UHGV virus genome: UHGV-0105868
DNA length: 23,305 nt
Direction: 5' to 3' (one strand)
Source: a virus
Shown here: piece after piece, positions 737 to 13,742 of the stretch
How positions within the stretch are numbered: position 1 is the stretch's first letter
Layout of the letters: every line of letters begins with the position of its first letter
Made by a program: the position numbers and the translations under genes
Notes under the pieces: model-generated
Seen by the model: only the letters and a program-made list of their open reading frames with translations
What the model was told of the DNA's origin: nothing
Databases searched by the model: none

Positions 737-1006
737 TTACCTTAAACGCCAGGGGCCTCTATCTTCAATCTGTTCGACTAACCCCTCCTCTTCTAGTTCA
801 CGCAATAGTGCAACAACCCAATATTGTTGGTTCGAACTTGTTGCTTTCCGTTTTTCTCCCCAATCGAGGCCGCTTAGACGAAATACCTCAGCTTGCTTAA
901 CGCCGTTGCCGTTTTTTTGGGCATCTGGGTGAGTTTTAAGTACGGATAAAGCCAATTCTTTGGCTCTGTTGCGCAATTCCGCTCCCTGATGCTGAAACTT
1001 ATTCAT
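737..1006 (-). CDS. Hypothetical 89-aa protein in the int-proximal att arm
   Basis: ORF with a GGAG about 8 nt upstream of the ATG. The translation has protein-like composition. Not recognised. Confidence 0.4.
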   Translation of the reverse strand: MNKFQHQGAELRNRAKELALSVLKTHPDAQKNGNGVKQAEVFRLSGLDWGEKRKATSSNQQYWVVALLRELEEEGLVEQIEDRGPWRLR

Positions 1007-1064: not shown

Positions 1065-2096
1065 TCAAAAACTTGCTATTGATGTTGGTAGTGTTGCCAG
1101 CGGATTAAACCGTAATGCAGTTTCCAGGTGATCCGGTGCCAGATGTGCGTAACGCATAGTCATTTTTATATCGTGATGCCCGAGAATTTTTTGTAAGGCC
1201 AGGATATTTCCACCCGACATCATGAAGTGCGCCGCAAACGTATGGCGCAGAACGTGTGTCAGTTGACCGCGAGGGAGCACGATAGACGTTTTTTCCATCA
1301 CGGATAAAAATTGAAAATAGCAGTCTGTAAAGAAATTGAACCCATCAAGCGCCATGATCTCTTCGTAAAGCTCTTTACTGATAGGGATGCTTCTGTTTTT
1401 CTTCCCCTTCGTTCTTACAAAGGTAATTCGGTATTTGGTCACCTGTGAGCGGGTAAGATTTACGGCTTCACGCCAACGTGCGCCTGTGCTTAAGCATATC
1501 TTAACTACCAGTGCCAGAATTGGGTCCTGACGTTTGCAATCAGCCAGCAATTCAACAATCTGCTCATGGGTAAGCCATGCCATCTCTTTTTCTGCGATGG
1601 TGAATTTTCGCATGTTCTCCAGTGGGTTTGGATACGACCATTCGCCCAGGCGGGATAGTTCGCTAAAAACACTACTTAGATAGCTTTGCTCCAGGTTAAT
1701 GGTGACCGGGCTGGCTCCTTTCTTCCATTTCTCGCTGAAGTAGATCTCACCTGTCAGGCGTTTATCTCGATAGTGGGCAAACATTTTAGAGGTGAGATTG
1801 GTTGCAAGAGGATTGCCTAGAGCGTCAACCATCAGCAGCAATTTGTCATAGACATGCTGCCCAGCAGTCAGAGATTTACCATGTAATTTGAACCATAGCT
1901 CAACCACGTCTTTCAGGGTTCGACGATCCACTGATTCGCCCAGCCAGGGCTTTGATTCGGTTTCTTCCATCGTGTGACGCTCAAAAGCCAGAGCTTCGCC
2001 TTTGGTGGCGAATTGTTTACGCACACGACGCCCACTTCTTCCGGCGGGGTAACATTCGCAAAGCCATTTCCCTGTGGTGAGTTTTCGTACTGCCAT
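1065..2096 (-). CDS. int: Tyrosine integrase (P2/186 Int-like)
   Basis: 343 aa starting MAVRKLTTGKW… (the track ORF extends further upstream, which I rejected). The C-terminus carries the tyrosine-recombinase motifs …HVLRHTFAAHF… and …MTMRYAHL…. Position next to the att core and the repressor fits. Confidence 0.9.
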   Translation of the reverse strand: MAVRKLTTGKWLCECYPAGRSGRRVRKQFATKGEALAFERHTMEETESKPWLGESVDRRTLKDVVELWFKLHGKSLTAGQHVYDKLLLMVDALGNPLATNLTSKMFAHYRDKRLTGEIYFSEKWKKGASPVTINLEQSYLSSVFSELSRLGEWSYPNPLENMRKFTIAEKEMAWLTHEQIVELLADCKRQDPILALVVKICLSTGARWREAVNLTRSQVTKYRITFVRTKGKKNRSIPISKELYEEIMALDGFNFFTDCYFQFLSVMEKTSIVLPRGQLTHVLRHTFAAHFMMSGGNILALQKILGHHDIKMTMRYAHLAPDHLETALRFNPLATLPTSIASF

Positions 2097-2284
2097 AAAA
2101 AATGCCCTCCAGTAGAGAGCATTTTTACTGTATGTATAACCAGTGTCAATGTATGAAATCCTACGACCATACATCTCACTGAAGCCATAATGAAGTTGGC
2201 TATTCTTTTTGCTATGTGAGCATGTAACTTTTGCGGTTAACCTGCGGCTCATTTTTATTTTAGACGCAGATATAAAAGCAAAAG

Positions 2285-2476
2285 TTATCGTGAGTTTTTA
2301 GTACAGATTTTTTTGGATTTACTAATAGTTCCATCATTGCAAACGAATTTGCCATCTGAGGTACAGTGAGAAACACCTCCCTTTTTCCCTGAGCAGGGAT
2401 AATTTCTAGCATAGGTAGTTAGTGGGTTTAATAACAAAGAACATGACAAAACCACAAAAAATACCTTACCAAGCAT
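2285..2476 (-). CDS. Small secreted/lipoprotein-like Cys-rich protein (63 aa), AT-rich moron
   Basis: Strong RBS (GGGAGGAAACT then ATG). N-terminal signal-peptide-like segment [23 protein letters not shown]. The predicted mature part has four Cys and many Lys/Gly. Sits in an AT-rich int-cI intergenic region. Confidence 0.5.
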
Positions 2477-2491: not shown

Positions 2492-3061
2492 CTATTTAAC
2501 ATACTTGACTGTTAAACTTATAATTTTACCAATTATTTCAATGTCTTCTATCTTGCATTCGAAGGCTCTGTTTCCACCCTCGACGAAGATTCTTCCACCG
2601 GGTAAACGAGTAATGTCACGGATCGTTATTTCGCCATCAATACTTATTACCCATTTACCATCACGTATATCATCAAATTCTTTATCACAAATAAATTCAG
2701 AATTGTTATCTGTGATGACAAAAGGTTTTTTAAACGTAGAGGGTAGAAATCCCTTATCAAAAATATAAAAACCGTCTTTCTGCAATGCTCCATCAGACAA
2801 TAAATATTTTTCTACTTCTATAGTATTTGTATTTGCTGATGCTTGCTTTGAACCATGCCCTGTTGTTAGCCAATTAAGCGAGGTGCCCGTTTCAAGGGCG
2901 CACTGGATTACCCAATCTGCTGGAAAAATATCACGCATATAGCGCGTTGCCATGGTGCTCTTAGAAACACCTAAATGATCACAGAGAGCCTGACGGGTAC
3001 CGAACCCATATGCTTCAACTAAACGTTCTATGGCTTTCTTACCGCCGCTATTGAAATCCAC
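2492..3061 (-). CDS. cI: Phage 186 CI-type immunity repressor (HTH N-terminal domain, non-peptidase C-terminal domain)
   Basis: HTH region …ERLVEAYGFGTRQALCDHLGVSKSTMATRYMRD…CALETGTSLNWLTTG… resembles 186 CI as I remember it. No S24 peptidase motif was seen. I prefer a GTG start at 3061, preceded by GGAGGA (189 aa); the open frame extends to a GTG at 3148 (218 aa), so the start is uncertain. Confidence 0.7.
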   Translation of the reverse strand: MDFNSGGKKAIERLVEAYGFGTRQALCDHLGVSKSTMATRYMRDIFPADWVIQCALETGTSLNWLTTGHGSKQASANTNTIEVEKYLLSDGALQKDGFYIFDKGFLPSTFKKPFVITDNNSEFICDKEFDDIRDGKWVISIDGEITIRDITRLPGGRIFVEGGNRAFECKIEDIEIIGKIISLTVKYVK

Positions 3062-3088
3062 AAGTCCTCCAAAGAAATCCAAAATTCG

Positions 3089-3117
3089 TTGACAGATTCC
3101 AAAAGCGATCTTAAAGT
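3089..3117 (+). promoter_or_regulatory. Candidate rightward lytic promoter (pR-like): -35 TTGACA, 17-bp spacer, -10 TAAAGT
   Basis: Perfect -35 hexamer at 3089..3094 and a 4/6 -10 hexamer at 3112..3117, about 90 bp upstream of apl. Found by sequence inspection only. Confidence 0.3.
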
Positions 3118-3206
3118 TGAACCAGAAGTGTTCTTTTGGAGCCTTCACTACTAATCACGACAAACAACGGCTCGCCACAAGCCATATCTAGAAGGAATGT
3201 TGCCTT

Positions 3207-3410
3207 ATGACACCTAACATTTCAATTACTCTGAATACACCACATGTCACAATCGAACGTTATAGCGAACTGACTGGCCTTTCTATTGATACGATTAACG
3301 ACATGTTGGCTGATGGCCGACTACCTCGTCATCGTCTTCGTAAAGACAAAAAACGTGAAAAGGTAATGATTAACCTGGCTGCTCTGACTGTTGATGCTTT
3401 GTCTGCTTAA
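3207..3410 (+). CDS. apl: Apl/Cox-like excisionase / lytic-switch regulator
   Basis: 67-aa ORF divergent from cI. HTH-like …[22 protein letters not shown]… and a basic tail. Position matches apl of 186 / cox of P2. AGGAA RBS. Confidence 0.65.
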
Positions 3411-3474
3411 TAGACGTCTATTTTCACAATAAGACGCTGAGTTCGATTTTGCGATAAGTTCGGAGTTGAAAACC

Positions 3475-3984
3475 ATGTTTGATTACCAAGTTTCCAAACA
3501 TCCACATTTTGATGAAGCCTGTCGTGCATTCGCACTGCGCCACAACCTGGTGCAACTGGCAGAACGTGCAGGCATGAATGTGCAGATTCTGCGGAACAAG
3601 CTGAACCCAGCTCAACCTCATTTATTAACCGCACCAGAAATCTGGCTGCTTACCGATCTGACTGAAGATTCAACGCTGGTAGACGGTTTTCTGGCACAGA
3701 TTCATTGTCTGCCATGTGTACCGATTAATGAGGTGGCAAAAGAGAAACTGCCACATTACGTCATGAGTGCAACCGCAGAGATCGGGCGTGTTGCTGCAGG
3801 TGCGGTATCTGGCGATGTAAAAACCAGTGCAGGTCGTCGTGATGCCATCAGCAGCATTAACTCTGTAACACGACTGATGGCACTGGCTGCTGTTTCATTG
3901 CAGGCCCGTTTACAGGCTAACCCTGCGATGGCGAGTGCAGTTGATACCGTAACTGGCCTCGGTGCTTCATTCGGTTTGCTGTGA
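3475..3984 (+). CDS. cII: CII lysogeny-establishment activator (186 CII-like)
   Basis: 169 aa from [24 protein letters not shown]…, closely resembling 186 CII as I remember it, with the same length. The track ORF starts three codons earlier at 3466. Confidence 0.85.
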
Positions 3985-4814: not shown

Positions 4815-5048
4815 ATGCGTAATATTGAAAACCTCACGACTAAAACCGGACCAGATGACGCAGGGCTTAATATTTTACTGACAGAGGCTCGTCTGGAAGA
4901 ACGCCGGGCAAGGGCTGAAGCAATGGCAGCTCGCCTTGATAGCCTGGCGTGTCATATCTCATCCCGTCAGCTAAACCACGTGGAAGCGGCAGAACTGCTG
5001 CGTGTGACTGCTGAAGCAATCCAGAACGAAGCGCAGGAGATCCACTAA
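4815..5048 (+). CDS. Hypothetical phage protein (77 aa)
   Basis: ATG 8 nt after AGGAG. The track's TTG start at 4809 is less likely. Its stop overlaps the next gene's start (TAATG). Confidence 0.55.
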   Translation: MRNIENLTTKTGPDDAGLNILLTEARLEERRARAEAMAARLDSLACHISSRQLNHVEAAELLRVTAEAIQNEAQEIH

Positions 5049-5275
5049 TGGCTGATGCAATGGATCTCGTACAGCAGCGCGTTGAAGAAGAACGCCAGCG
5101 CCATATCCGTGCTGCCCGTGCCAAAACGCCGGGCGTGTCCCGCGTGCTTTGCGTTGAGTGTGAAGCGCCAATTCCGCCAGCACGCCGTCGTGCCATACCG
5201 GGTGTGCAGCTTTGCATTACCTGTCAGGAAATCGCAGAGCTGAAAGGCAAACATTACAACGGAGGTGCTGTATGA
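5048..5275 (+). CDS. DksA/TraR-family C4 zinc-finger protein
   Basis: 75 aa with CVECEAPIP…-(17 aa)-…CITC, the four-Cys zinc finger typical of phage TraR-like proteins. Confidence 0.8.
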   Translation: MADAMDLVQQRVEEERQRHIRAARAKTPGVSRVLCVECEAPIPPARRRAIPGVQLCITCQEIAELKGKHYNGGAV

Positions 5276-6129
5276 GCACCATCCTGAAATGGGCGGGAAA
5301 TAAAACCGCCATAATGTCCGAACTGAAAAAGCATCTTCCTGCTGGCCCGCGACTGGTTGAACCTTTCGCGGGTTCCTGTGCAGTGATGATGGAGACGGAT
5401 TACCCCAGCTATCTTGTTGCGGATATTAATCCTGATTTAATCAACCTCTATAAAAAGGTTGCTGCTGATTGTGAGGCGTTTATATCTCGTGCCAGAGCTT
5501 TATTTGAGGACGCAAACAGGGAGGTGACTTATTACAACATAAGGTAGGAGTTTAATTACTCAACTGAAATTACTGATTTCATGAAAGCGGTATATTTCCT
5601 GTATCTCAATCGTCACGGTTACCGTGGGTTATGTCGTTATAACAAGAGCGGGCATTTCAACATTCCATACGGTAATTATAAAAATCCGTATTTCCCTGAA
5701 AAAGAAATTCGCGCATTTGCAGAGAAAGCCCAGCGAGCAACGTTTATCTGCGCCAGCTTTGATGAAACGCTGGCGATGCTGCAGGTGGGGGATGTGGTGT
5801 ATTGCGATCCGCCTTATGACGGTACGTTTTCCGGTTATCACACTGACGGCTTCACTGAAGATGACCAGTATCACCTGGCATCCGTTCTTGAACATCGGTC
5901 ATCAGAAGGACATCCGGTCATTGTTTCTAATAGTGACACATCCCTGATCCGTTCGCTGTATCGCAATTTCACTCACCACTACATCAAGGCAAAACGCAGC
6001 ATTGGCGTGTCAGCTGGCGAGAGTAAATCTGCAACAGAAATCATCGCTGTTTCTGGGGCGCGCTGCTGGGTGGGATTTGATCCTTCGCGTGGCGTGGATA
6101 GTTCTGCCGTGTACGGAGTGCGTGCATGA
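5272..6129 (+). pseudogene. dam: Dam-type N6-adenine DNA methyltransferase interrupted by an in-frame amber codon (TAG at 5545..5547)
   Basis: N-terminal part has …ILKWAGNK… and EPFAGS (motif I). C-terminal part has …[15 protein letters not shown]… and DPPY (motif IV). The two track ORFs (ending 5547, starting 5581) are in the same frame. Reading through the TAG gives [27 protein letters not shown], which aligns with E. coli Dam (…YYQFREEFNKSQDPFRRAVLFLYLNR…) with the stop at a Glu position. GGAGG RBS before 5272. Confidence 0.8.
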
Positions 6130-8540
6130 GCCATGCTGATATGAACAACTGCAGCGGCTTTAACGAGGCCGCCGCAGCATTCTCATGGAACAGCCCGAAA
6201 AAGGCTATTAACCCTTATCTGGACCCGGCGGAAGTTGCGCCGGTTTCTGCGCTTTCAAACCTGATCACTCTGTACGCTGTCGATAACGAGCAGGAACAAC
6301 TGCGTCGCGAGGCACTGAGTGATCAGGTCTGGGAGCGTTATTTCTTTAATGAATCCCGTGATCCTGTTCACCGCGAAATGGAGCAGGATAAGCTCATTAG
6401 CCGGGCAAAGCTGGCGCATGAGCAGCAGCGTTTTAATCCAGATATGGTCATTCTGGCGGACGTCAATGCCCAGCCTTCCCATATCAGCAAGCCGCTGATG
6501 CAACGTATTGAATACTTCAGCAGCCTGGGCAGGCCAAAGGCTTATTCCCGCTATTTGCGTGAGACGATTAAGCCATGTCTGGAACGACTGGAGCATGTAC
6601 GCGACTGTCAGCTATCCACTTCTTTTCGCTTTATGGCAAGCCATGAAGGGCTGGACGGCCTGCTGATCCTGCCTGAAATGAGTCAGGATCAGGTGAAGCG
6701 CCTGTCTACCCTTGTCGCCGCGCATATGAGCATGTGCCTTGATGCAGCTTGTGGTGATTTGTATGCCACCGATGACGTTAAGCCAGAAGAAATCCGCAAG
6801 ACATGGGAAAAGGTGGCAGCGGAAACCCTGCGTCTGGATGTTATCCCGCCTGCGTTTGAGCAACTCCGTCGGAAAAGAAACCGCCGTAAACCCGTGCCTT
6901 ATGAACTCATTCCGGGTTCGCTGGCGCGTATGTTATGCGCCGACTGGTGGTATCGGAAATTATGGAAGATGCGTTGCGAATGGCGGGAAGAGCAGTTGCG
7001 TGCTGTTTGCCTGGTCAGCAAAAAAGCATCTCCCTATGTCAGCTATGAAGCCGTGATGCATAAACGTGAGCAGCGCCGTAAGTCGCTGGAGTTTTTCCGT
7101 TCTCATGAACTGGTGAACGAAGACGGCGACACGCTGGATATGGAAGACGTGGTAAACGCCAGCAGCAGCAACCCTGCGCATCGCCGCAATGAGATGATGG
7201 CCTGTGTTAAAGGTCTGGAGCTTATCGCGGAAATGCGCGGTGACTGCGCCGTTTTCTACACCATCACCTGTCCGTCACGTTTCCATTCCACGCTAAATAA
7301 CGGCAGGCCCAACCCGACCTGGACAAATGCGACGGTAAGACAAAGCAGTGATTATCTGGTCGGTATGTTTGCTGCATTTCGTAAGGCGATGCACAAAGCC
7401 GGATTGCGCTGGTATGGCGTGCGGGTGGCTGAGCCGCATCATGACGGTACAGTTCACTGGCACCTGTTGTGTTTTATGCGCAAAAAAGATCGCCGCGCCA
7501 TTACTGCTTTGTTGCGTAAGTTTGCCATTCGTGAAGACCGCGAGGAGCTGGGTAATAACACGGGACCACGCTTTAAGTCTGAGCTGATAAACCCGCGCAA
7601 AGGTACGCCAACAAGCTACATCGCGAAATACATCAGTAAGAACATTGACGGGCGTGGTCTGGCTGGCGAGATCAGCAAGGAAACGGGTAAATCCCTGCGT
7701 GATAACGCTGAATACGTTAATGCCTGGGCGTCTCTGCATCGTGTTCAGCAATTCCGCTTCTTTGGCATTCCGGGGCGTCAGGCTTACCGTGAACTGCGAT
7801 TGCTGGCTGGTCAGGCGGCAAGGCAACAGGGGGACAAAAAAGCAGGTGCGCCGGTACTGGATAACCCGCGTCTTGATGCCATCCTGGCCGCTGCTGATGC
7901 TGGTTGTTTTGCCACCTACATCATGAAGCAGGGCGGCGTACTGGTTCCCCGCAAATATCACCTCATCAGAACCGCTTATGAAATCAACGAAGAGCCGACC
8001 GCCTATGGCGATCACGGCATTCGTATTTATGGCATCTGGTCACCCATTGCAGAGGGCAAGATCTGCACTCATGCGGTGAAGTGGAAAATGGTTCGTAAGG
8101 CCGTTGACATTCAGGAGGCGGCAGCCGACCAGGGCGCTTGCGCCCCTTGGACTCGTGGCAATAACTGTCCCCTTGCTGAAAATTTGTACCAACAAGGGAA
8201 AGACAAATCAGCTGATGGGGATACCAGAACGGATATCACCCGTATGGATGACAAGGAGTTGCACGATTACCTGCACAGTATGAACAAAAAAGAACGCCGG
8301 GAACTGGCTGCAAGGTTACGCCTGGTGAAACCGAAACGGCGTAGAGACTACAAACAGCGAATTACAGACCATCAACGACAGCAGCTCGTCTATGAACTGA
8401 AGTCCAGAGGATTTGATGGCAGCGAGAAAGAGGTCGATTTACTCCTTCGCGGCGGCAGTATTCCGTCAGGAGCAGGCCTGCGTATCTTCTATCGGAACCA
8501 GCGTTTGCAGGAAGATGATAAGTGGCGGGATCTGTATTAA
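6126..8540 (+). CDS. A: Replication initiation protein A (rolling-circle nicking endonuclease, P2 gpA-like)
   Basis: 804 aa containing …[13 protein letters not shown]… (HxH metal motif) and …YIAKYISKN… (catalytic Tyr region). Start overlaps the dam stop (ATGA). Confidence 0.9.
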
Positions 8541-8632
8541 TTACGCGGGTTAACAATTCGTGCTCTTAATAATACCAGGCATATCAGGCTGATGAACGTA
8601 AAAAAACGTTTTACATCAGTAAGATTATTATA

Positions 8633-8652
8633 TACTGTAAATATAAACAGTG
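8633..8652 (+). promoter_or_regulatory. LexA (SOS) box TACTGTAAATATAAACAGTG overlapping a putative promoter
   Basis: CTGT-N8-ACAG with an AT-rich spacer, close to the consensus TACTGTATATATATACAGTA. Lies about 45 bp upstream of the 8694 start. Placement matches the LexA-controlled tum promoter of phage 186. Confidence 0.6.
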
Positions 8653-8693
8653 GTTATGTGTACAGTATTGCTTGTGGTGTCATAGGAGGAAAA

Positions 8694-8882
8694 ATGCAGG
8701 ACTATTTTTTGGAGTCTTTGAAGCTCCAGCGCATTGATTTTTTTCTTAAGCTTGTAGCGGCTAGTGAGTGTAGTGATGAAGAGAAGGGGCTGGCTCTGCA
8801 GTGGGTTTCTGAATTGACTGATGAACTCATGGCAAAAATCAGAAGCCACGAATACAACCGCTCAATGGATGTCATCAGCTGA
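8694..8882 (+). CDS. Small SOS-regulated protein (62 aa) at the tum antirepressor position
   Basis: ATG preceded by AGGAGG. Directly downstream of the LexA box. The protein itself is not recognised; the antirepressor role is inferred from position only. Confidence 0.45.
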   Translation: MQDYFLESLKLQRIDFFLKLVAASECSDEEKGLALQWVSELTDELMAKIRSHEYNRSMDVIS

Positions 8883-8892
8883 GGTGACTTTT

Positions 8893-9126
8893 ATGCGCAT
8901 TGAAATAATGATCGATAAAGAGCAGAAAATTAGCCAGTCTACCCTGGACGCCCTTGAATCCGAGCTTTACCGCAATCTGCGCCCCCTGTATCCCAAAACG
9001 GTAATTCGTATCCGCAAAGGTAGCTCTAACGGTGTGGAACTGACCGGACTGCAACTGGACGAAGAAAGAAAACAAGTGATGAAAATTATGCAGAAGGTGT
9101 GGGAAGACGACAGCTGGCTGCATTAA
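8893..9126 (+). CDS. DinI-like protein
   Basis: 77 aa, MRIEIMIDKEQKISQSTLDALESELYRNL…KVWEDDSWLH, resembling E. coli DinI (MRIEVTIAK…ALAGELSRR…ETWESADDWFVSE) in length and pattern. RBS GAGGTG. Confidence 0.75.
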   Translation: MRIEIMIDKEQKISQSTLDALESELYRNLRPLYPKTVIRIRKGSSNGVELTGLQLDEERKQVMKIMQKVWEDDSWLH

Positions 9127-9631
9127 GAAACGTTGCTGGCGTCTGAACTTGCTTCTGGCGTCAGCAAGGTTGAACAACGAGCTGTGCGAGGCGTTAGCCA
9201 TCTGATCAAAAGACATCAAATATCATATTGTATATCGTGGTTAAACGCTGGAAACAATCATTCCCGGTCAGAGGGGCTTCTTTCAATGTCCAAAAGAGTG
9301 AGATAGAGGATACAGGATGGGAAGAGCTTATGATGATTGTTCTTGGATTGACTTGGAATATTTGATGTCCATTATCTAATGGACTTGGTCTTGATAGTTA
9401 TCACGAAAGAGGAAGCCAACGTCATGTATTTGAAGAGTATCTCTTACCTTTTGATTAATTATTGTCCAAGTTTTTCAAAAGCTTCTTATCTGGCGGTCGA
9501 TACATGATTTACTGTTGGATATGGTATTTAAAATTAATCTTTACACTGTGGTATATGCAGAATAGGATATTATCAATACAATCAAACCGTTTTCATACGG
9601 TTGTTAATATTGCAATGTTATAGGTAATGTC

Positions 9632-10750
9632 ATGTATCTTTTCAAGTATTACCGTCCGGACTTCTTCTTCGAGAAAGCTATTCGTTATAATGAATTATAT
9701 TTTTCCGCTCCTGCGCAATTGAATGATCCTAATGATCTCAATATAGATTATCGTTTTGATAATAAATTGAAATTATGGGATATTTTATTGCGTTCTCCTT
9801 GCGATAAATCCTATGAAAATTTGAGTCACATATTAGATTTGAGTAATTTGAAGATACATAAGGGATTGAATCGTATTTTTAGAGGAAAAAAAATAAAAAG
9901 TAGCATTGAGTCATTAGATAGCCTGTTTGACTCACACGTTGATGAGATACGTAAGATCATAAATGATGGTTTACTACCTATCAATGTGATTAATTCCGCT
10001 ATTTATGGGAATATTCCTGAACCACGCCAATTTTTGGTCTCACTTTGCGAGAACAGTATCAAAGAAAGGTTGTATAGGAAAATAGTTCCTGCAGTATTCA
10101 GTGTGTCATTTTCAGCTAATGCGTTAGATCGTATGATGTGGGCGCATTATGCTGCAGGCTTTAGTGGTTGTGTTGTGATTTATGAAACGCAGGATTTTAA
10201 TATTAATGGCGTGCCACATCCTGGAATGAAGCTAAGAGAAAATTTATTTTCATCAGATAAATTTAATTTTCCAGTTAAGCAAATAAAATATAGTAATCAG
10301 GCTAAAGAGGTTTCACTTCTAGACCCAAGCGCAAATGTTGCAGAGTTATTTTTAACTAAAAATAGATTTTGGAGATATGAAGCTGAATATCGAATGTTTA
10401 TTCCAGAGGCAAATGCAGGAATAGGGAGTGAGCGGCATGTTCAAAGACGCGTAAATCGAAATATTGGACATATTTTTCATCATGATGCTAATGTTGTTAA
10501 AGGGATCATTTTTGGTCCTAGAATGTGTGAAATGAAAAAAGAAAGCATATGGAATTGTATCAAGTCAAATATGGAGAATTCAAATTCAACAATATGTTAT
10601 TTTTTTGACTCTGAGTTATCAGCATCAGGAAAGATTACTATTTCAAAAGGGCAACGAGCGGAAAAAATGAAAAATTTCCCTTTGTTCAGGAACAAGTTAA
10701 GTCAGACGGAAATGGCTAAAGTTTTGAAGGAAATTGGCATTACGAACTAA
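9632..10750 (+). CDS. AT-rich cargo protein (372 aa) with DUF2971-like N-terminal motif; candidate defence / abortive-infection gene
   Basis: Long ORF in a visibly AT-rich region, unlike the GC-richer phage backbone. N-terminus LFKYYRPDFFFEKAIRYNELYFSAPAQLNDPNDL and a later …SFSANALDRMMWAHYAAGFSGCVVIY… resemble the DUF2971 family signature as I remember it. Function unknown. Confidence 0.8.
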   Translation: MYLFKYYRPDFFFEKAIRYNELYFSAPAQLNDPNDLNIDYRFDNKLKLWDILLRSPCDKSYENLSHILDLSNLKIHKGLNRIFRGKKIKSSIESLDSLFDSHVDEIRKIINDGLLPINVINSAIYGNIPEPRQFLVSLCENSIKERLYRKIVPAVFSVSFSANALDRMMWAHYAAGFSGCVVIYETQDFNINGVPHPGMKLRENLFSSDKFNFPVKQIKYSNQAKEVSLLDPSANVAELFLTKNRFWRYEAEYRMFIPEANAGIGSERHVQRRVNRNIGHIFHHDANVVKGIIFGPRMCEMKKESIWNCIKSNMENSNSTICYFFDSELSASGKITISKGQRAEKMKNFPLFRNKLSQTEMAKVLKEIGITN

Positions 10751-10816
10751 CCTAACAACAGTGCATGCCTATGCTGCCTGAATTTGCATGACCGTTTGAG
10801 GATCGTTTTTGCTAAG

Positions 10817-10840
10817 GCCCGCCAGAACTGGCGGGCTTTT
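10817..10840 (+). terminator. Rho-independent terminator (gcccgcc-agaact-ggcgggc-TTTT)
   Basis: 7-bp GC stem, 6-nt loop and a T-run, 66 bp downstream of the 9632..10750 stop. Confidence 0.6.
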
Positions 10841-10885
10841 GCGTGGATCAGGCACCTGCATGAAAACCACTACACAAAGCGGGCA

Positions 10886-10904
10886 GGCGTGGCGGGGATA
10901 CGAG
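10886..10904. other. Candidate cos site (19-nt cohesive-end region GGCGTGGCGGGGATACGAG)
   Basis: The first 13 nt match the P2/186 cohesive-end sequences as I remember them (P2 GGCGAGGCGGGGAAAGCAC; 186 GGCGTGGCGGGGAAAGCAT). Sits in a short GC-rich block between the two AT-rich cargo genes, between gene A and the 3' end of Q, where cos lies in P2-like prophages. Confidence 0.4.
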
Positions 10905-11005
10905 CGCGCGCAACAGTGTAACAATCTGGATCTAATGTGATATAGTTACTGTAAATATTATTAATTATTCTTATATGCATTATTAAATATTTTAATGGAG
11001 CGTTT

Positions 11006-12679
11006 ATGGAAAAATATCAAGATGAGGAATATGTAGACGATTTAACTGAGCGTGTTTTTCTCATTAAGCAACAACTGGAAGCGGGAAAACTAAAAATAGC
11101 TCATCATCTTGTAGAAGGTTTTATTGAAAGTTTTAAAAGAATAAGGCTGCGACAGGATGGTAAAGTTGACCCTTCTACTGTTGATGGCAGAATAAGGGCT
11201 ATGGGAGCAGCGGTTAATCACTTTTTAGAAAGAGAAGATATAAAAAACAAATACTCTATTCAGGACTTGCAAAGTTCTTACTTTAATATTCTTTTTAGTA
11301 ATTTTGGCGAGTTGTTTTATCTGATGAAAAAAACTAATGCAACGCCACATAAAGCATCAAGTTTTTTTTCTCAACAAGAAGAATATGTTAAGCAAATAGA
11401 AGGTGTTTTTCCTGAGTTATATAATCAGGTAATAGAGTTTTGGCAGGTAACATCCGATATTGGTGTAATACATTTGCAGGATGGTTCTCAGTTTAAAGCT
11501 AATTTTTCTGGTGACTTATTTCCTGCATTTGATGAGAATGCTGTCTCTATTGCAGGGTTGTATGTTGATACTATTTCACTTCCATGTCCTATATTAAGAG
11601 TCGGTCGTCTCTATGAAAAGTCAGATAAGGCTGAGTTTACAAGGATACTTCTGAAGCATGTCCTAACATGTATGACATATAAAGAAGTAGCGCTTGAAGA
11701 TATAGAGCCAGCAATAGTATTAATTTTGCCGGATAGAAGAGATTTTGAAACTGAGAGCAAAAAAAATTTGATGAGTTTTTGTGAGCCTTATGCTCTGACT
11801 CATGCGCAATATCTCTATGATCGACGGTTCGAAAGCTACGATGAATTTCAAGATTTTAGTTATTCGATGAATGATATTGATGCTGTTCTTAAAAATATTA
11901 AGAGAGCAGATAGACTTATTTTTGATACAGCATGGGGGCTAAATCCAAAAACTCAATTAGAAAAACTACTATCTGATAAAAAAAGAATATCACGTAATGT
12001 TGTTGGTGATCATGCTGGAATGGAGGTTTTCCTTTCCTGCATTGGAAGAATGCCGCAAGCCTATTCAGCAAAATGTAATGCACAAGAACTTGGTAGTACT
12101 CCATATATAAATGCAGACACATCTTGGCTCTATTATACTTGGCTTATTGAGTACGAATCTCTTAATTTTGATGTCAATGATATTGAACTAAAAAATTTGC
12201 ATATGGTTCATGCGTTATCTGCTGGTATGCAAGATGGTTTTTCATGGTTAGGAAATGTACCGGTCAATAAAATAATTGAGTTGAGACGTAACAAATTGAT
12301 GGAGGATGTAAGATCCATCTTATCAAATGGTGTTGACTCTTTAATCAATTCTTCGGCAGAGAGCTTTTCGAGGACAACGCAAAAAGTAATTGATAATGTA
12401 GACCGGGCTTTTATTGAACATCAAAGGATTCTTGCAAAAGCCCAAAAAGAGAAATTGAGAATTTACGGACTGGATGTCCTACCATGTATCGCAAATGGTG
12501 CTATAGCAATTGCTGGAGCGCTGACTGGCAATACTACTTTAGCGGCGTTAAGTGCAGGCCTTGGAGTAATAGGTATTCCGAGTATTAGTGATATCAAATC
12601 TAAATTTAAGCAGAGGCAAGAGAAGCTTGATGCCTATCAACGTTCTGTTACAGGTATACTCTTTAGCCATAAATCTTAA
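11006..12679 (+). CDS. AT-rich cargo protein (557 aa), unknown function, C-terminal hydrophobic Gly/Ala-rich segment; candidate defence / abortive-infection effector
   Basis: Long AT-rich ORF with a GGAG RBS. No motif recognised in the mostly soluble-looking body. Near the C-terminus is a hydrophobic stretch, …LPCIANGAIAIAGALTGNTTLAALSAGLGVIGIPSI…, long enough for one or two membrane helices. Confidence 0.8.
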   Translation: MEKYQDEEYVDDLTERVFLIKQQLEAGKLKIAHHLVEGFIESFKRIRLRQDGKVDPSTVDGRIRAMGAAVNHFLEREDIKNKYSIQDLQSSYFNILFSNFGELFYLMKKTNATPHKASSFFSQQEEYVKQIEGVFPELYNQVIEFWQVTSDIGVIHLQDGSQFKANFSGDLFPAFDENAVSIAGLYVDTISLPCPILRVGRLYEKSDKAEFTRILLKHVLTCMTYKEVALEDIEPAIVLILPDRRDFETESKKNLMSFCEPYALTHAQYLYDRRFESYDEFQDFSYSMNDIDAVLKNIKRADRLIFDTAWGLNPKTQLEKLLSDKKRISRNVVGDHAGMEVFLSCIGRMPQAYSAKCNAQELGSTPYINADTSWLYYTWLIEYESLNFDVNDIELKNLHMVHALSAGMQDGFSWLGNVPVNKIIELRRNKLMEDVRSILSNGVDSLINSSAESFSRTTQKVIDNVDRAFIEHQRILAKAQKEKLRIYGLDVLPCIANGAIAIAGALTGNTTLAALSAGLGVIGIPSISDIKSKFKQRQEKLDAYQRSVTGILFSHKS

Positions 12680-12710: not shown

Positions 12711-13742
12711 TTATATGAAACTGTATGGCATGAATTTTATTATGTCATCTTTGAGCCATTTATTGAGTTCTTCTATTCTGTTTTGTAGCGGTATCAATTC
12801 ATTACGCATAAAAACCTTACTAGCCTTCTCCACATCCCCAAATCCCCCAACATTATTCGGTATTATCCCCATCATTTGCGGCGGCACTCGGTGTGCTGCC
12901 ATCATGTCATCCCGGCTCACGTTCTTGATATTCAAAAATTCATCCTTTGCCGCGACTTCTGACAGAGGAATAATCTGAAGCCCGTCCTTTTTGCCGTTAG
13001 GCGAGTACATAAACAGGTTGCGGAAGTTGCCAGGGCCTTTGGCGCTTTTCATCGCATTGCGGAGGTTGTTCACGTCCTCCTGGTTCTGCGCGGCATCGGT
13101 CATGTACATGATGAAGCCAGCATGACTGCCGTTAATGTAATACTTTCGGCGGAACAGCGTGGCGGACTCGTTGAGCAGGGCTGACGGAATGGCAGAAAGA
13201 TAACCGGGCAGGCCGTAGATCTCCTGGTTGATGTCCGGTTCCATCAGATGAAAGATGCTGCCTTTCGTGAACTGATATGGCTGCGTGGTCATACCGTATT
13301 GCACAAACCAGTAGGTATCCAGGTCTAACCCGCGTCGGGTGTATTTTGCCAGGGCAGGTTCAAGGGCGATAACTTCACCGAAGCGGTTCGTGCGTTTCTC
13401 CAGGTAGGCGTTACCAAATACCAGATAGTCCTGAACAAAACGCGAAAAAGCCTGCTGGCTGAGCAGCGGGTGAGGGATGTAGGTGCTGGTCAGAATGTTG
13501 CACTTTACTGCAATCGGGGAACTATGATGCACGGCAGCGCGGAAGGTGCGCGCCAGTCCGTCAAAGCTGACGGGCGGTTCATACCAGCGGTCCATCTGTA
13601 CGCATTCCACATAATCCAGCAGTTCTCGGCGGTCCAGAACAGGAACGGGATCGCCGAAGCTGAATGCTTCGGCTGTAGTTTGACTTTTAAGCTGGATCTG
13701 TTTCGTCGCCGCAGCGCGGTTCTTCTTACTCTTTCCCATCAA
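12711..13742 (-). CDS. Q: Portal protein (P2 gpQ-like)
   Basis: 343 aa at the P2 gene Q position and orientation (3' end toward cos, divergent from the head genes). Confidence 0.85.
   Translation of the reverse strand: MMGKSKKNRAAATKQIQLKSQTTAEAFSFGDPVPVLDRRELLDYVECVQMDRWYEPPVSFDGLARTFRAAVHHSSPIAVKCNILTSTYIPHPLLSQQAFSRFVQDYLVFGNAYLEKRTNRFGEVIALEPALAKYTRRGLDLDTYWFVQYGMTTQPYQFTKGSIFHLMEPDINQEIYGLPGYLSAIPSALLNESATLFRRKYYINGSHAGFIMYMTDAAQNQEDVNNLRNAMKSAKGPGNFRNLFMYSPNGKKDGLQIIPLSEVAAKDEFLNIKNVSRDDMMAAHRVPPQMMGIIPNNVGGFGDVEKASKVFMRNELIPLQNRIEELNKWLKDDIIKFMPYSFI

Follow-up and report, generated by a model that had tools for sequence, protein, structure and literature searches.

Two small genes lying between positions 8610 and 9126 of the window, by which we mean the whole 23.3-kb stretch of DNA analysed here, quite likely constitute the SOS operon of a P2-like prophage of the Fels-2/186 type, with tum split into tumA and tumB and with induction proceeding through the CI repressor. 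Fels-2-type prophages are already known to carry such a module, an SOS operon split into tumA and tumB, and the present example is real but ordinary. The analysis adds to the known module a profile match to Tum, the conservation of the LexA box, the selection acting on the small upstream gene and the type of the CI repressor.

The window contains the left half of a P2-like Escherichia coli prophage with a 186-type switch, integrated beside rcdA in E. coli. Its features are listed below.

20-586: TetR-family host gene; rcdA in the homologous flank of E. coli ARL09/232
1065-2252, minus strand: integrase
2492-3148, minus strand: CI repressor of the 186 type (PF07022, 3.3e-31; PF16452, 4.7e-29; 33% identity to 186 CI)
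3207-3410: Apl-sized (Apl-like) ORF adjoining CI
3466-3984: CII (PF06892, 3.4e-42)
5048-5275: DksA/TraR zinc-finger protein
5272-6129: Dam methylase
6126-8540: replication protein gpA (Pfam Phage_GPA, 1e-127)
8610-8615, plus strand: candidate -35 hexamer TTTACA, 17 nt upstream of TACTGT
8633-8652, plus strand: LexA operator TACTGTAAATATAAACAGTG, the first six bases of which are the candidate -10
8694-8882, plus strand: tumA-like gene, 62 aa (PHROG 698; 97% identity to Fels-2 STM2728)
8893-9126, plus strand: tumB-like gene, 77 aa, DinI family (Pfam DinI; PHROG 189)
9129-9171, plus strand: hairpin without a T-run, at the 3' end of the two-gene unit
9632-12679: low-GC cargo
12711-13742, minus strand: portal gene Q (portal-like ORF)

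The module at 8610-9126 thus sits between gpA and the cargo and portal gene Q, as in tum operons of the 186 type. The coordinates given in the first-pass annotation were all correct. That annotation had described a near-consensus LexA operator just upstream of the 62-aa ORF, and the description holds, with 17 of 20 positions matching the E. coli LexA consensus TACTGTATATATATACAGTA. The CTGT-N8-ACAG core occurs a single time in the window; the core alone is not rare (0.26 occurrences expected, and at least one in 21 of 100 shuffles), and sites with three or fewer mismatches to the consensus 20-mer appeared in none of 100 shuffles. The site is also kept in relatives. Among 187 distinct regions upstream of Tum/TumA genes, taken from genomes and viral contigs, 182 carry CTG-N10-CAG at the same place, with invariant arms and a variable spacer, and the distinct boxes yield exactly TACTGTATATATATACAGTA as their consensus. 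The shuffles and this conservation together rule out a chance origin of the box. At one locus (L036), the only one of its kind, the LexA box has decayed and the tumA-like ORF is truncated to 14 aa. A possible second LexA half-site in the window, TACAGT at about 8662-8667, was rejected, its spacing to any CTG being a misfit to CTG-N10-CAG.

The promoter, TTTACA-17-TACTGT, is interlocked with the operator, the -10 hexamer TACTGT lying inside the LexA box. A promoter scan omitted it because TACTGT matches TATAAT at only three of six positions. Its geometry is nonetheless recurrent: 91 of 97 distinct upstream regions of the window type and 64 of 70 of the 186 type have a -35-like hexamer at a distance of 16-18 nt. 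By analogy with 186, PSP3 and Fels-2, LexA would be expected to bind this operator and transcription of the module would depend on the SOS response.

The 62-aa ORF that follows is preceded by an AGGAGG Shine-Dalgarno sequence at 8684-8689, 4 nt before the ATG. A longer, 96-aa ORF beginning at an ATG at 8592 would cross both the promoter and the LexA box; it was rejected because the N-termini of the family begin with MQD, and it is this start that has the strong Shine-Dalgarno. The first-pass annotation had made its reading depend on retention of the ORF in related prophages, and the ORF is retained: a large protein collection contains 483 homologues, and 67 clusters at 50% identity, distributed across the Enterobacterales, match the protein. 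Measured against 31 relatives from different genera, the gene has a median dN/dS of 0.07, with a mean pS of 0.61, which is near saturation, and a pN of 0.09, and is under strong purifying selection. The protein matches PHROG 698, a family of unknown function, at 5.9e-38. Searches of Pfam, PADLOC, PDB sequences and Rfam returned nothing for the protein or for the intergenic regions.

The relation to phage 186 becomes visible by profile only. BLASTP gave no match between the 62-aa protein and 186 Tum, to which the protein is only about 21% identical over Tum residues 1-70. A family profile built from 30 diverse members did match 186 Tum, scoring 38 bits with an E-value of 3e-10 over residues 5-48, compared with a best score of 8.2 bits among 6000 shuffles used as a control. 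The family and Tum have in common the pattern (I/L)xR(I/V)(D/E)xxxxL, an invariant Cys and (D/E)(K/R)xxALxW/L(I/V)(A/S)E(L/I). An AlphaFold2 model (pLDDT 87) places helices at residues 2-23 and 28-61, so that the protein is predicted to be a two-helix hairpin, with the nearly invariant Cys26 in the turn. The first-pass annotation had put the protein forward as a candidate short antirepressor; the profile match to the N-terminal part of Tum upholds that reading, and by analogy the 62-aa protein is probably the antirepressor of CI.

Its presumed target is a repressor that would need such a partner. The first-pass annotation had noted that the repressor has no autocleavage domain, and indeed its Peptidase_S24 match of 16 bits falls below the 23.3-bit threshold. 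Judged by its sequence, CI is of the 186 type and is predicted to be non-self-cleaving; being of this type, and with the S24 match below threshold, it should be unable to respond to RecA by itself. The true start of CI is probably internal to ORF 2492-3148.

The pairing of the small protein, hereafter TumA, with CI was followed at 70 viral-contig loci whose TumA is at least 98% identical to that of the window. At these loci gpA is 90-99% and CII 89-100% identical to the window proteins, and CI falls into 16 clusters below 80% identity, with pairwise identities of 33-75% between clusters. Across these clusters the divergence is unequal along the protein, reaching down to 22% identity in the C-terminal domain and down to 58% in the N-terminal domain. 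Over the first ~60 aligned residues, which form the HTH domain, the window residue is kept in 75-81% of the clusters, compared with only 33-50% in the linker and C-terminal domain. We then considered 129 distinct TumA-CI pairs, including loci where TumA is of a diverged type or where Tum is fused as in 186. TumA identity correlates with that of the CI N-terminal domain with a Spearman coefficient of 0.79 and with that of the C-terminal domain with a coefficient of 0.57; the partial coefficient is 0.68 for the N-terminal domain given the C-terminal one, and 0.14 for the C-terminal domain given the N-terminal one. This covariation is a lead and not proof, because shared descent and unequal rates of the two domains are confounding.

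The same data feed the alternative that fares best, namely that the module is SOS-controlled and the 62-aa protein acts on a conserved host or phage component (RecA, LexA, CII, or the cell-division or replication machinery) instead of CI, with induction achieved via something else. The occurrence of virtually the same TumA (at least 98% identity) alongside 16 CI clusters lying below 80% identity fits such a target, since a near-invariant antirepressor facing diverged repressors is unusual for a specific pair, and CII and gpA are as conserved as TumA at those loci. Against it, TumA tracks the N-terminal domain of CI far more closely than the C-terminal one (partial coefficients of 0.68 versus 0.14), and a non-cleavable CI needs an SOS-controlled inactivator, while the sole LexA box of the window lies here. 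Above all, what sets the active, full-length antirepressor apart from the truncated, DinI-like modulators is the very part of Tum to which the 62-aa protein is homologous, and for this reason we rate a target other than CI as unlikely.

If CI is the target, as we prefer, the near-invariance of TumA calls for another account. The distribution of conserved residues and the covariation suggest that TumA recognises the conserved DNA-binding domain of CI and is generic across many CI variants. We tentatively propose, as a possibility somewhat short of probable, that TumA is generic and not immunity-specific, one near-invariant sequence serving at least 16 CIs by docking on their N-terminal domain. 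Were this true, the linker and oligomerisation domain of CI would be free to diversify, the diversification of CI in this lineage would be driven by something besides escape from the antirepressor, and a Fels-2-type prophage undergoing SOS induction would also set off its heteroimmune relatives in the same cell.

With CI as the target, the preferred model would operate as follows. In an undamaged lysogen, host LexA bound at 8633-8652 would occlude the -10 of the sigma-70 promoter and keep both genes silent. DNA damage would activate RecA and provoke LexA self-cleavage, whereupon the promoter would fire and the 62-aa helical-hairpin protein would be made. This protein would bind the non-cleavable CI and keep it off its operators, like the N-terminal half of 186 Tum, releasing the early lytic promoter pR and inducing the prophage. 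The co-transcribed DinI-like protein would probably bind RecA filaments and tune the SOS signal, and would be dispensable for induction. Both the binding of CI by the 62-aa protein and the role given to the DinI-like protein are drawn by analogy with 186, PSP3 and Fels-2.

Beyond the two genes, a hairpin at 9129-9171 follows directly after the stop codon of the dinI-like gene. A terminator scan did not list it because it has no T-run, and no Rfam family matches it; among 20 distinct relatives, 8 of its 12 pairs show compensatory changes. A conserved stretch, GGTTGAACAACGAG...GCGAGGCGTTAG, follows the hairpin up to about 9198, the point at which homology among relatives with different cargo ends, and the hairpin stands at the left edge of the variable cargo. 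It is possible that the hairpin is a weak terminator or a 3' stabiliser. The cargo genes at 9632-10750 (DUF2971; PADLOC candidate PDC-S31, 3e-23) and 11006-12679 (a weak DitB match) have 29-38% GC, compared with about 52% in the backbone, and occupy the interval between gpA and gpQ, which is a defence hotspot of P2-like phages (PMC9122126). In the hotspot papers searched, the keywords SOS, LexA and DinI gave no match. Homology of the first cargo protein to 186 Orf97 or to Fels-2 STM2726 was considered and is not supported, the cargo being different.

In a second alternative, the promoter mainly serves to switch on the defence cargo at 9632-12679 by SOS read-through and prophage induction is secondary. 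It can draw on the lack of a T-run in the hairpin after the dinI-like gene, on the p95 transcript of 186, part of which passes the partial terminator t95a into orf97, and on the first cargo ORF, which in 113 of 143 distinct architectures points the same way as the module (raw ORFs, not genes). The other 30 architectures start with an opposite-strand ORF, however, and about 500 nt of AT-rich spacer separate module and cargo, with promoter-like sites of its own (for instance TTTACA-17-TAGGAT at 9540-9568) and two terminator-like hairpins; moreover, the cargo is freely exchanged while the module stays constant. A main role in cargo expression seems quite improbable, and induction via CI remains our reading of the module. 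For the read-through as such, which the first-pass annotation had suggested, the sequence offers arguments on both sides, and the covarying hairpin might control whether SOS transcripts enter the gpA-gpQ defence hotspot.

The second gene of the unit begins 10 nt past the TGA stop of the 62-aa ORF, and each ORF has its own Shine-Dalgarno sequence. The first-pass annotation had called its product a DinI homologue, an assignment borne out by a match to Pfam DinI (PF06183) at 6.6e-23 and 81.3 bits, compared with a gathering cut-off of 24.2 bits, that spans positions 1-63 of the 63 of the profile. The protein also matches E. coli DinI (PDB 1ghh) at 2.7e-6, is 100% identical to Fels-2 STM2726.1 and 78% identical to PSP3 TumB, and has in common with 186 Tum both 41% identity over Tum residues 71-146 and an acidic C-terminal stretch, here WEDDSW. 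Because the 62-aa profile and the DinI-like homologies fall on the two parts of Tum, the window carries both tum halves as two genes.

The unit is widespread: a 660-bp stretch of the module is 90-98% identical in 49 of 67 matching phage records from Klebsiella, Salmonella and Escherichia, and of 5426 complete E. coli genomes, 1125 carry the module. The second gene is not a constant part of it, since about 15 of 37 loci, including those of phages ESSI-2 and ev129, have the LexA box and the small gene without a dinI-like gene within 2.5 kb. The DinI-like protein is probably accessory, and by analogy it probably binds RecA filaments. That it should instead be the functional inducer or main product, with the 62-aa ORF as a leader or accessory peptide, is highly improbable: it shows higher conservation than its partner (100% identity to Fels-2) and alone belongs to a recognised family, but the loci just mentioned dispense with it, the 186 annotation gives the truncated, DinI-like Tum forms the role of modulators and not of inducers, dinI deletions left Gifsy induction unchanged (PMC3121763), and the small ORF has a dN/dS of 0.07 and a strong Shine-Dalgarno of its own.

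With the 62-aa protein as the presumed inducer, a widespread protein can be given a name. RefSeq labels the small gene 'hypothetical protein' or, in some cases, 'levan regulatory protein', and a literature search by the names tumA, tumB and STM2728 returned unrelated papers only; it can now be called a candidate SOS-controlled antirepressor of the tumA type. The module would also explain how a common prophage with a non-self-cleaving CI senses DNA damage. If one TumA inactivates many CIs, the induction of co-resident heteroimmune prophages would be coupled, as has been shown for the Gifsy phages. What remains of value beyond a familiar operon is therefore a name for the small protein, the lead towards a generic antirepressor, and an unexplained conserved hairpin at the boundary of the hotspot.

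Several known systems resemble the module to different degrees. The first-pass annotation had likened it to the tum module of 186, and the p95-like promoter, the homology of both proteins to Tum and the 186-type CI bear this out. In 186, CI is inhibited by Tum, which is itself under LexA control (PMC7708051). The p95 promoter has the -35 TTCACA, a 17-nt spacer and the -10 TACTGT, and its LexA site starts at the -10, which is the geometry of the window; the switch is likewise made up of a 186-type CI, Apl and CII, and accessory genes follow on the same strand. Unlike the window, with its two separate genes, 186 encodes a single 146-aa Tum with internal starts, and it has a T-run terminator, t95a, where the window has a hairpin without a T-run. 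The 186 record gives the function of full-length Tum as 'inhibits CI DNA binding' and that of its shorter, DinI-like forms as 'modulates SOS induction'.

A stop codon divides tum in PSP3, as it does in Fels-2 (Lemire et al. 2011, PMC3121763). Like the window, PSP3 has two separate genes preceded by a LexA box and a p95-like promoter, and its record gives tumA as 'similar to 5' end 186 tum; UV induction of prophage', together with tumB. Antirepressor activity of the upstream gene of PSP3 is reported as a personal communication of E. Christie in Bunny et al. 2002, as relayed in PMC3121763, and PSP3 TumA is the only split upstream gene with reported activity. Comparison of PSP3 TumA with the window TumA gave 4.5 bits with the family HMM, within the range of shuffles, and nothing with BLASTP, and the two proteins have only their position and a C..(D/E)..LAL motif in common.

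[quoted passage not shown] They differ in that dinI comes first and in that the Gifsy phages are lambdoid, with unrelated repressors. Non-polar deletions of dinI did not affect Gifsy induction, and the Gifsy antirepressors can act in trans on the repressors of other prophages (PMC3121763).

Fels-2 of Salmonella Typhimurium LT2 offers a close counterpart, its STM2728 and STM2726.1 being 97% and 100% identical to the 62-aa and DinI-like proteins of the window, respectively. The two prophages agree in the position of the module after gpA, the LexA box, the distance from the box to the ATG and the 10-nt intergenic gap. They differ in host, that of the window being E. coli, in the cargo downstream and in CI, which is only 38% identical between the two.

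Homology among relatives ends in the region 9129-9198, 3' of the dinI-like gene, and from there on the cargo differs. The features discussed here are as follows:

737-1006, minus strand, 89-aa ORF flanked by int and the TetR-family gene of the host
2285-2476, minus strand, 63-aa cysteine-rich ORF between int and cI
5272-6129, prophage Dam methylase gene, with a stop codon at 5545-5547
9129-9198, hairpin without a T-run, followed by a conserved 3' stretch
9632-12679, cargo of low GC content occupying the gpA-gpQ defence hotspot

The hairpin, which comes directly after the stop codon of the dinI-like gene, is maintained by compensatory changes, which were found in eight of its 12 pairs when 20 relatives were compared, and the conserved stretch GGTTGAACAACGAG...GCGAGGCGTTAG lies 3' of it. 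No Rfam family was found for the region.

The first cargo gene encodes a DUF2971 protein matching the PADLOC candidate system PDC-S31 (3e-23), and the second encodes a 557-aa product with a weak match to DitB (2.7e-10) and no stronger one; E. coli ARL09/232 carries an AIPR-family gene in place of the latter. Across 143 distinct architectures of the tum/dinI-gpQ interval (loci L002-L221), the first cargo ORF lies on the strand of the SOS module in 113, and about 79% of cargo ORF length is on that strand, both figures being crude ORF counts rather than gene calls. The LexA box and TumA-like gene stand alone in ESSI-2 (L004) and ev129 (L005), where neither a dinI-like gene nor cargo is present and the next genes after the TumA-like gene are a short one on the opposite strand, labelled 'transcriptional regulator', and the portal gene.

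Many diverged homologues of the 62-aa TumA-like protein (P0147, P0149, P0153, P0156, P0169, P0173, P0178 and P0181 in alignment A2) carry a C-terminal tail, KNPQxGGxxxGGxxLQ or FQ, which the protein of the window lacks.

The CI repressor (2492-3148, minus strand; compared over loci L039-L118) is hypervariable within an otherwise near-identical backbone: among 70 loci whose TumA is at least 98% identical, it forms 16 clusters sharing less than 80% identity. Most of this variation falls in the linker and the C-terminal oligomerisation domain, and the HTH domain is about 75-81% conserved across clusters.

The int-cI interval looks like a second variable slot, since ARL09/232 has a DUF4041 gene where the window has the 63-aa ORF, whose hydrophobic N-terminus resembles a signal peptide. 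On the other side of the integrase gene, the 89-aa ORF, for which no Pfam family was found, lies between the integrase and host genes. The corresponding gap in ARL09/232, from rcdA to the integrase gene, is only about 100 nt long.

The Dam methylase gene of the window is interrupted in frame at codon 92 by an amber codon (TAG), which splits it into two ORFs of 91 and 182 aa, and the gene is therefore probably inactive. At the same codon, the Dam methylase genes of both ARL09/232 and the Salmonella prophage Fels-2 have CAG.
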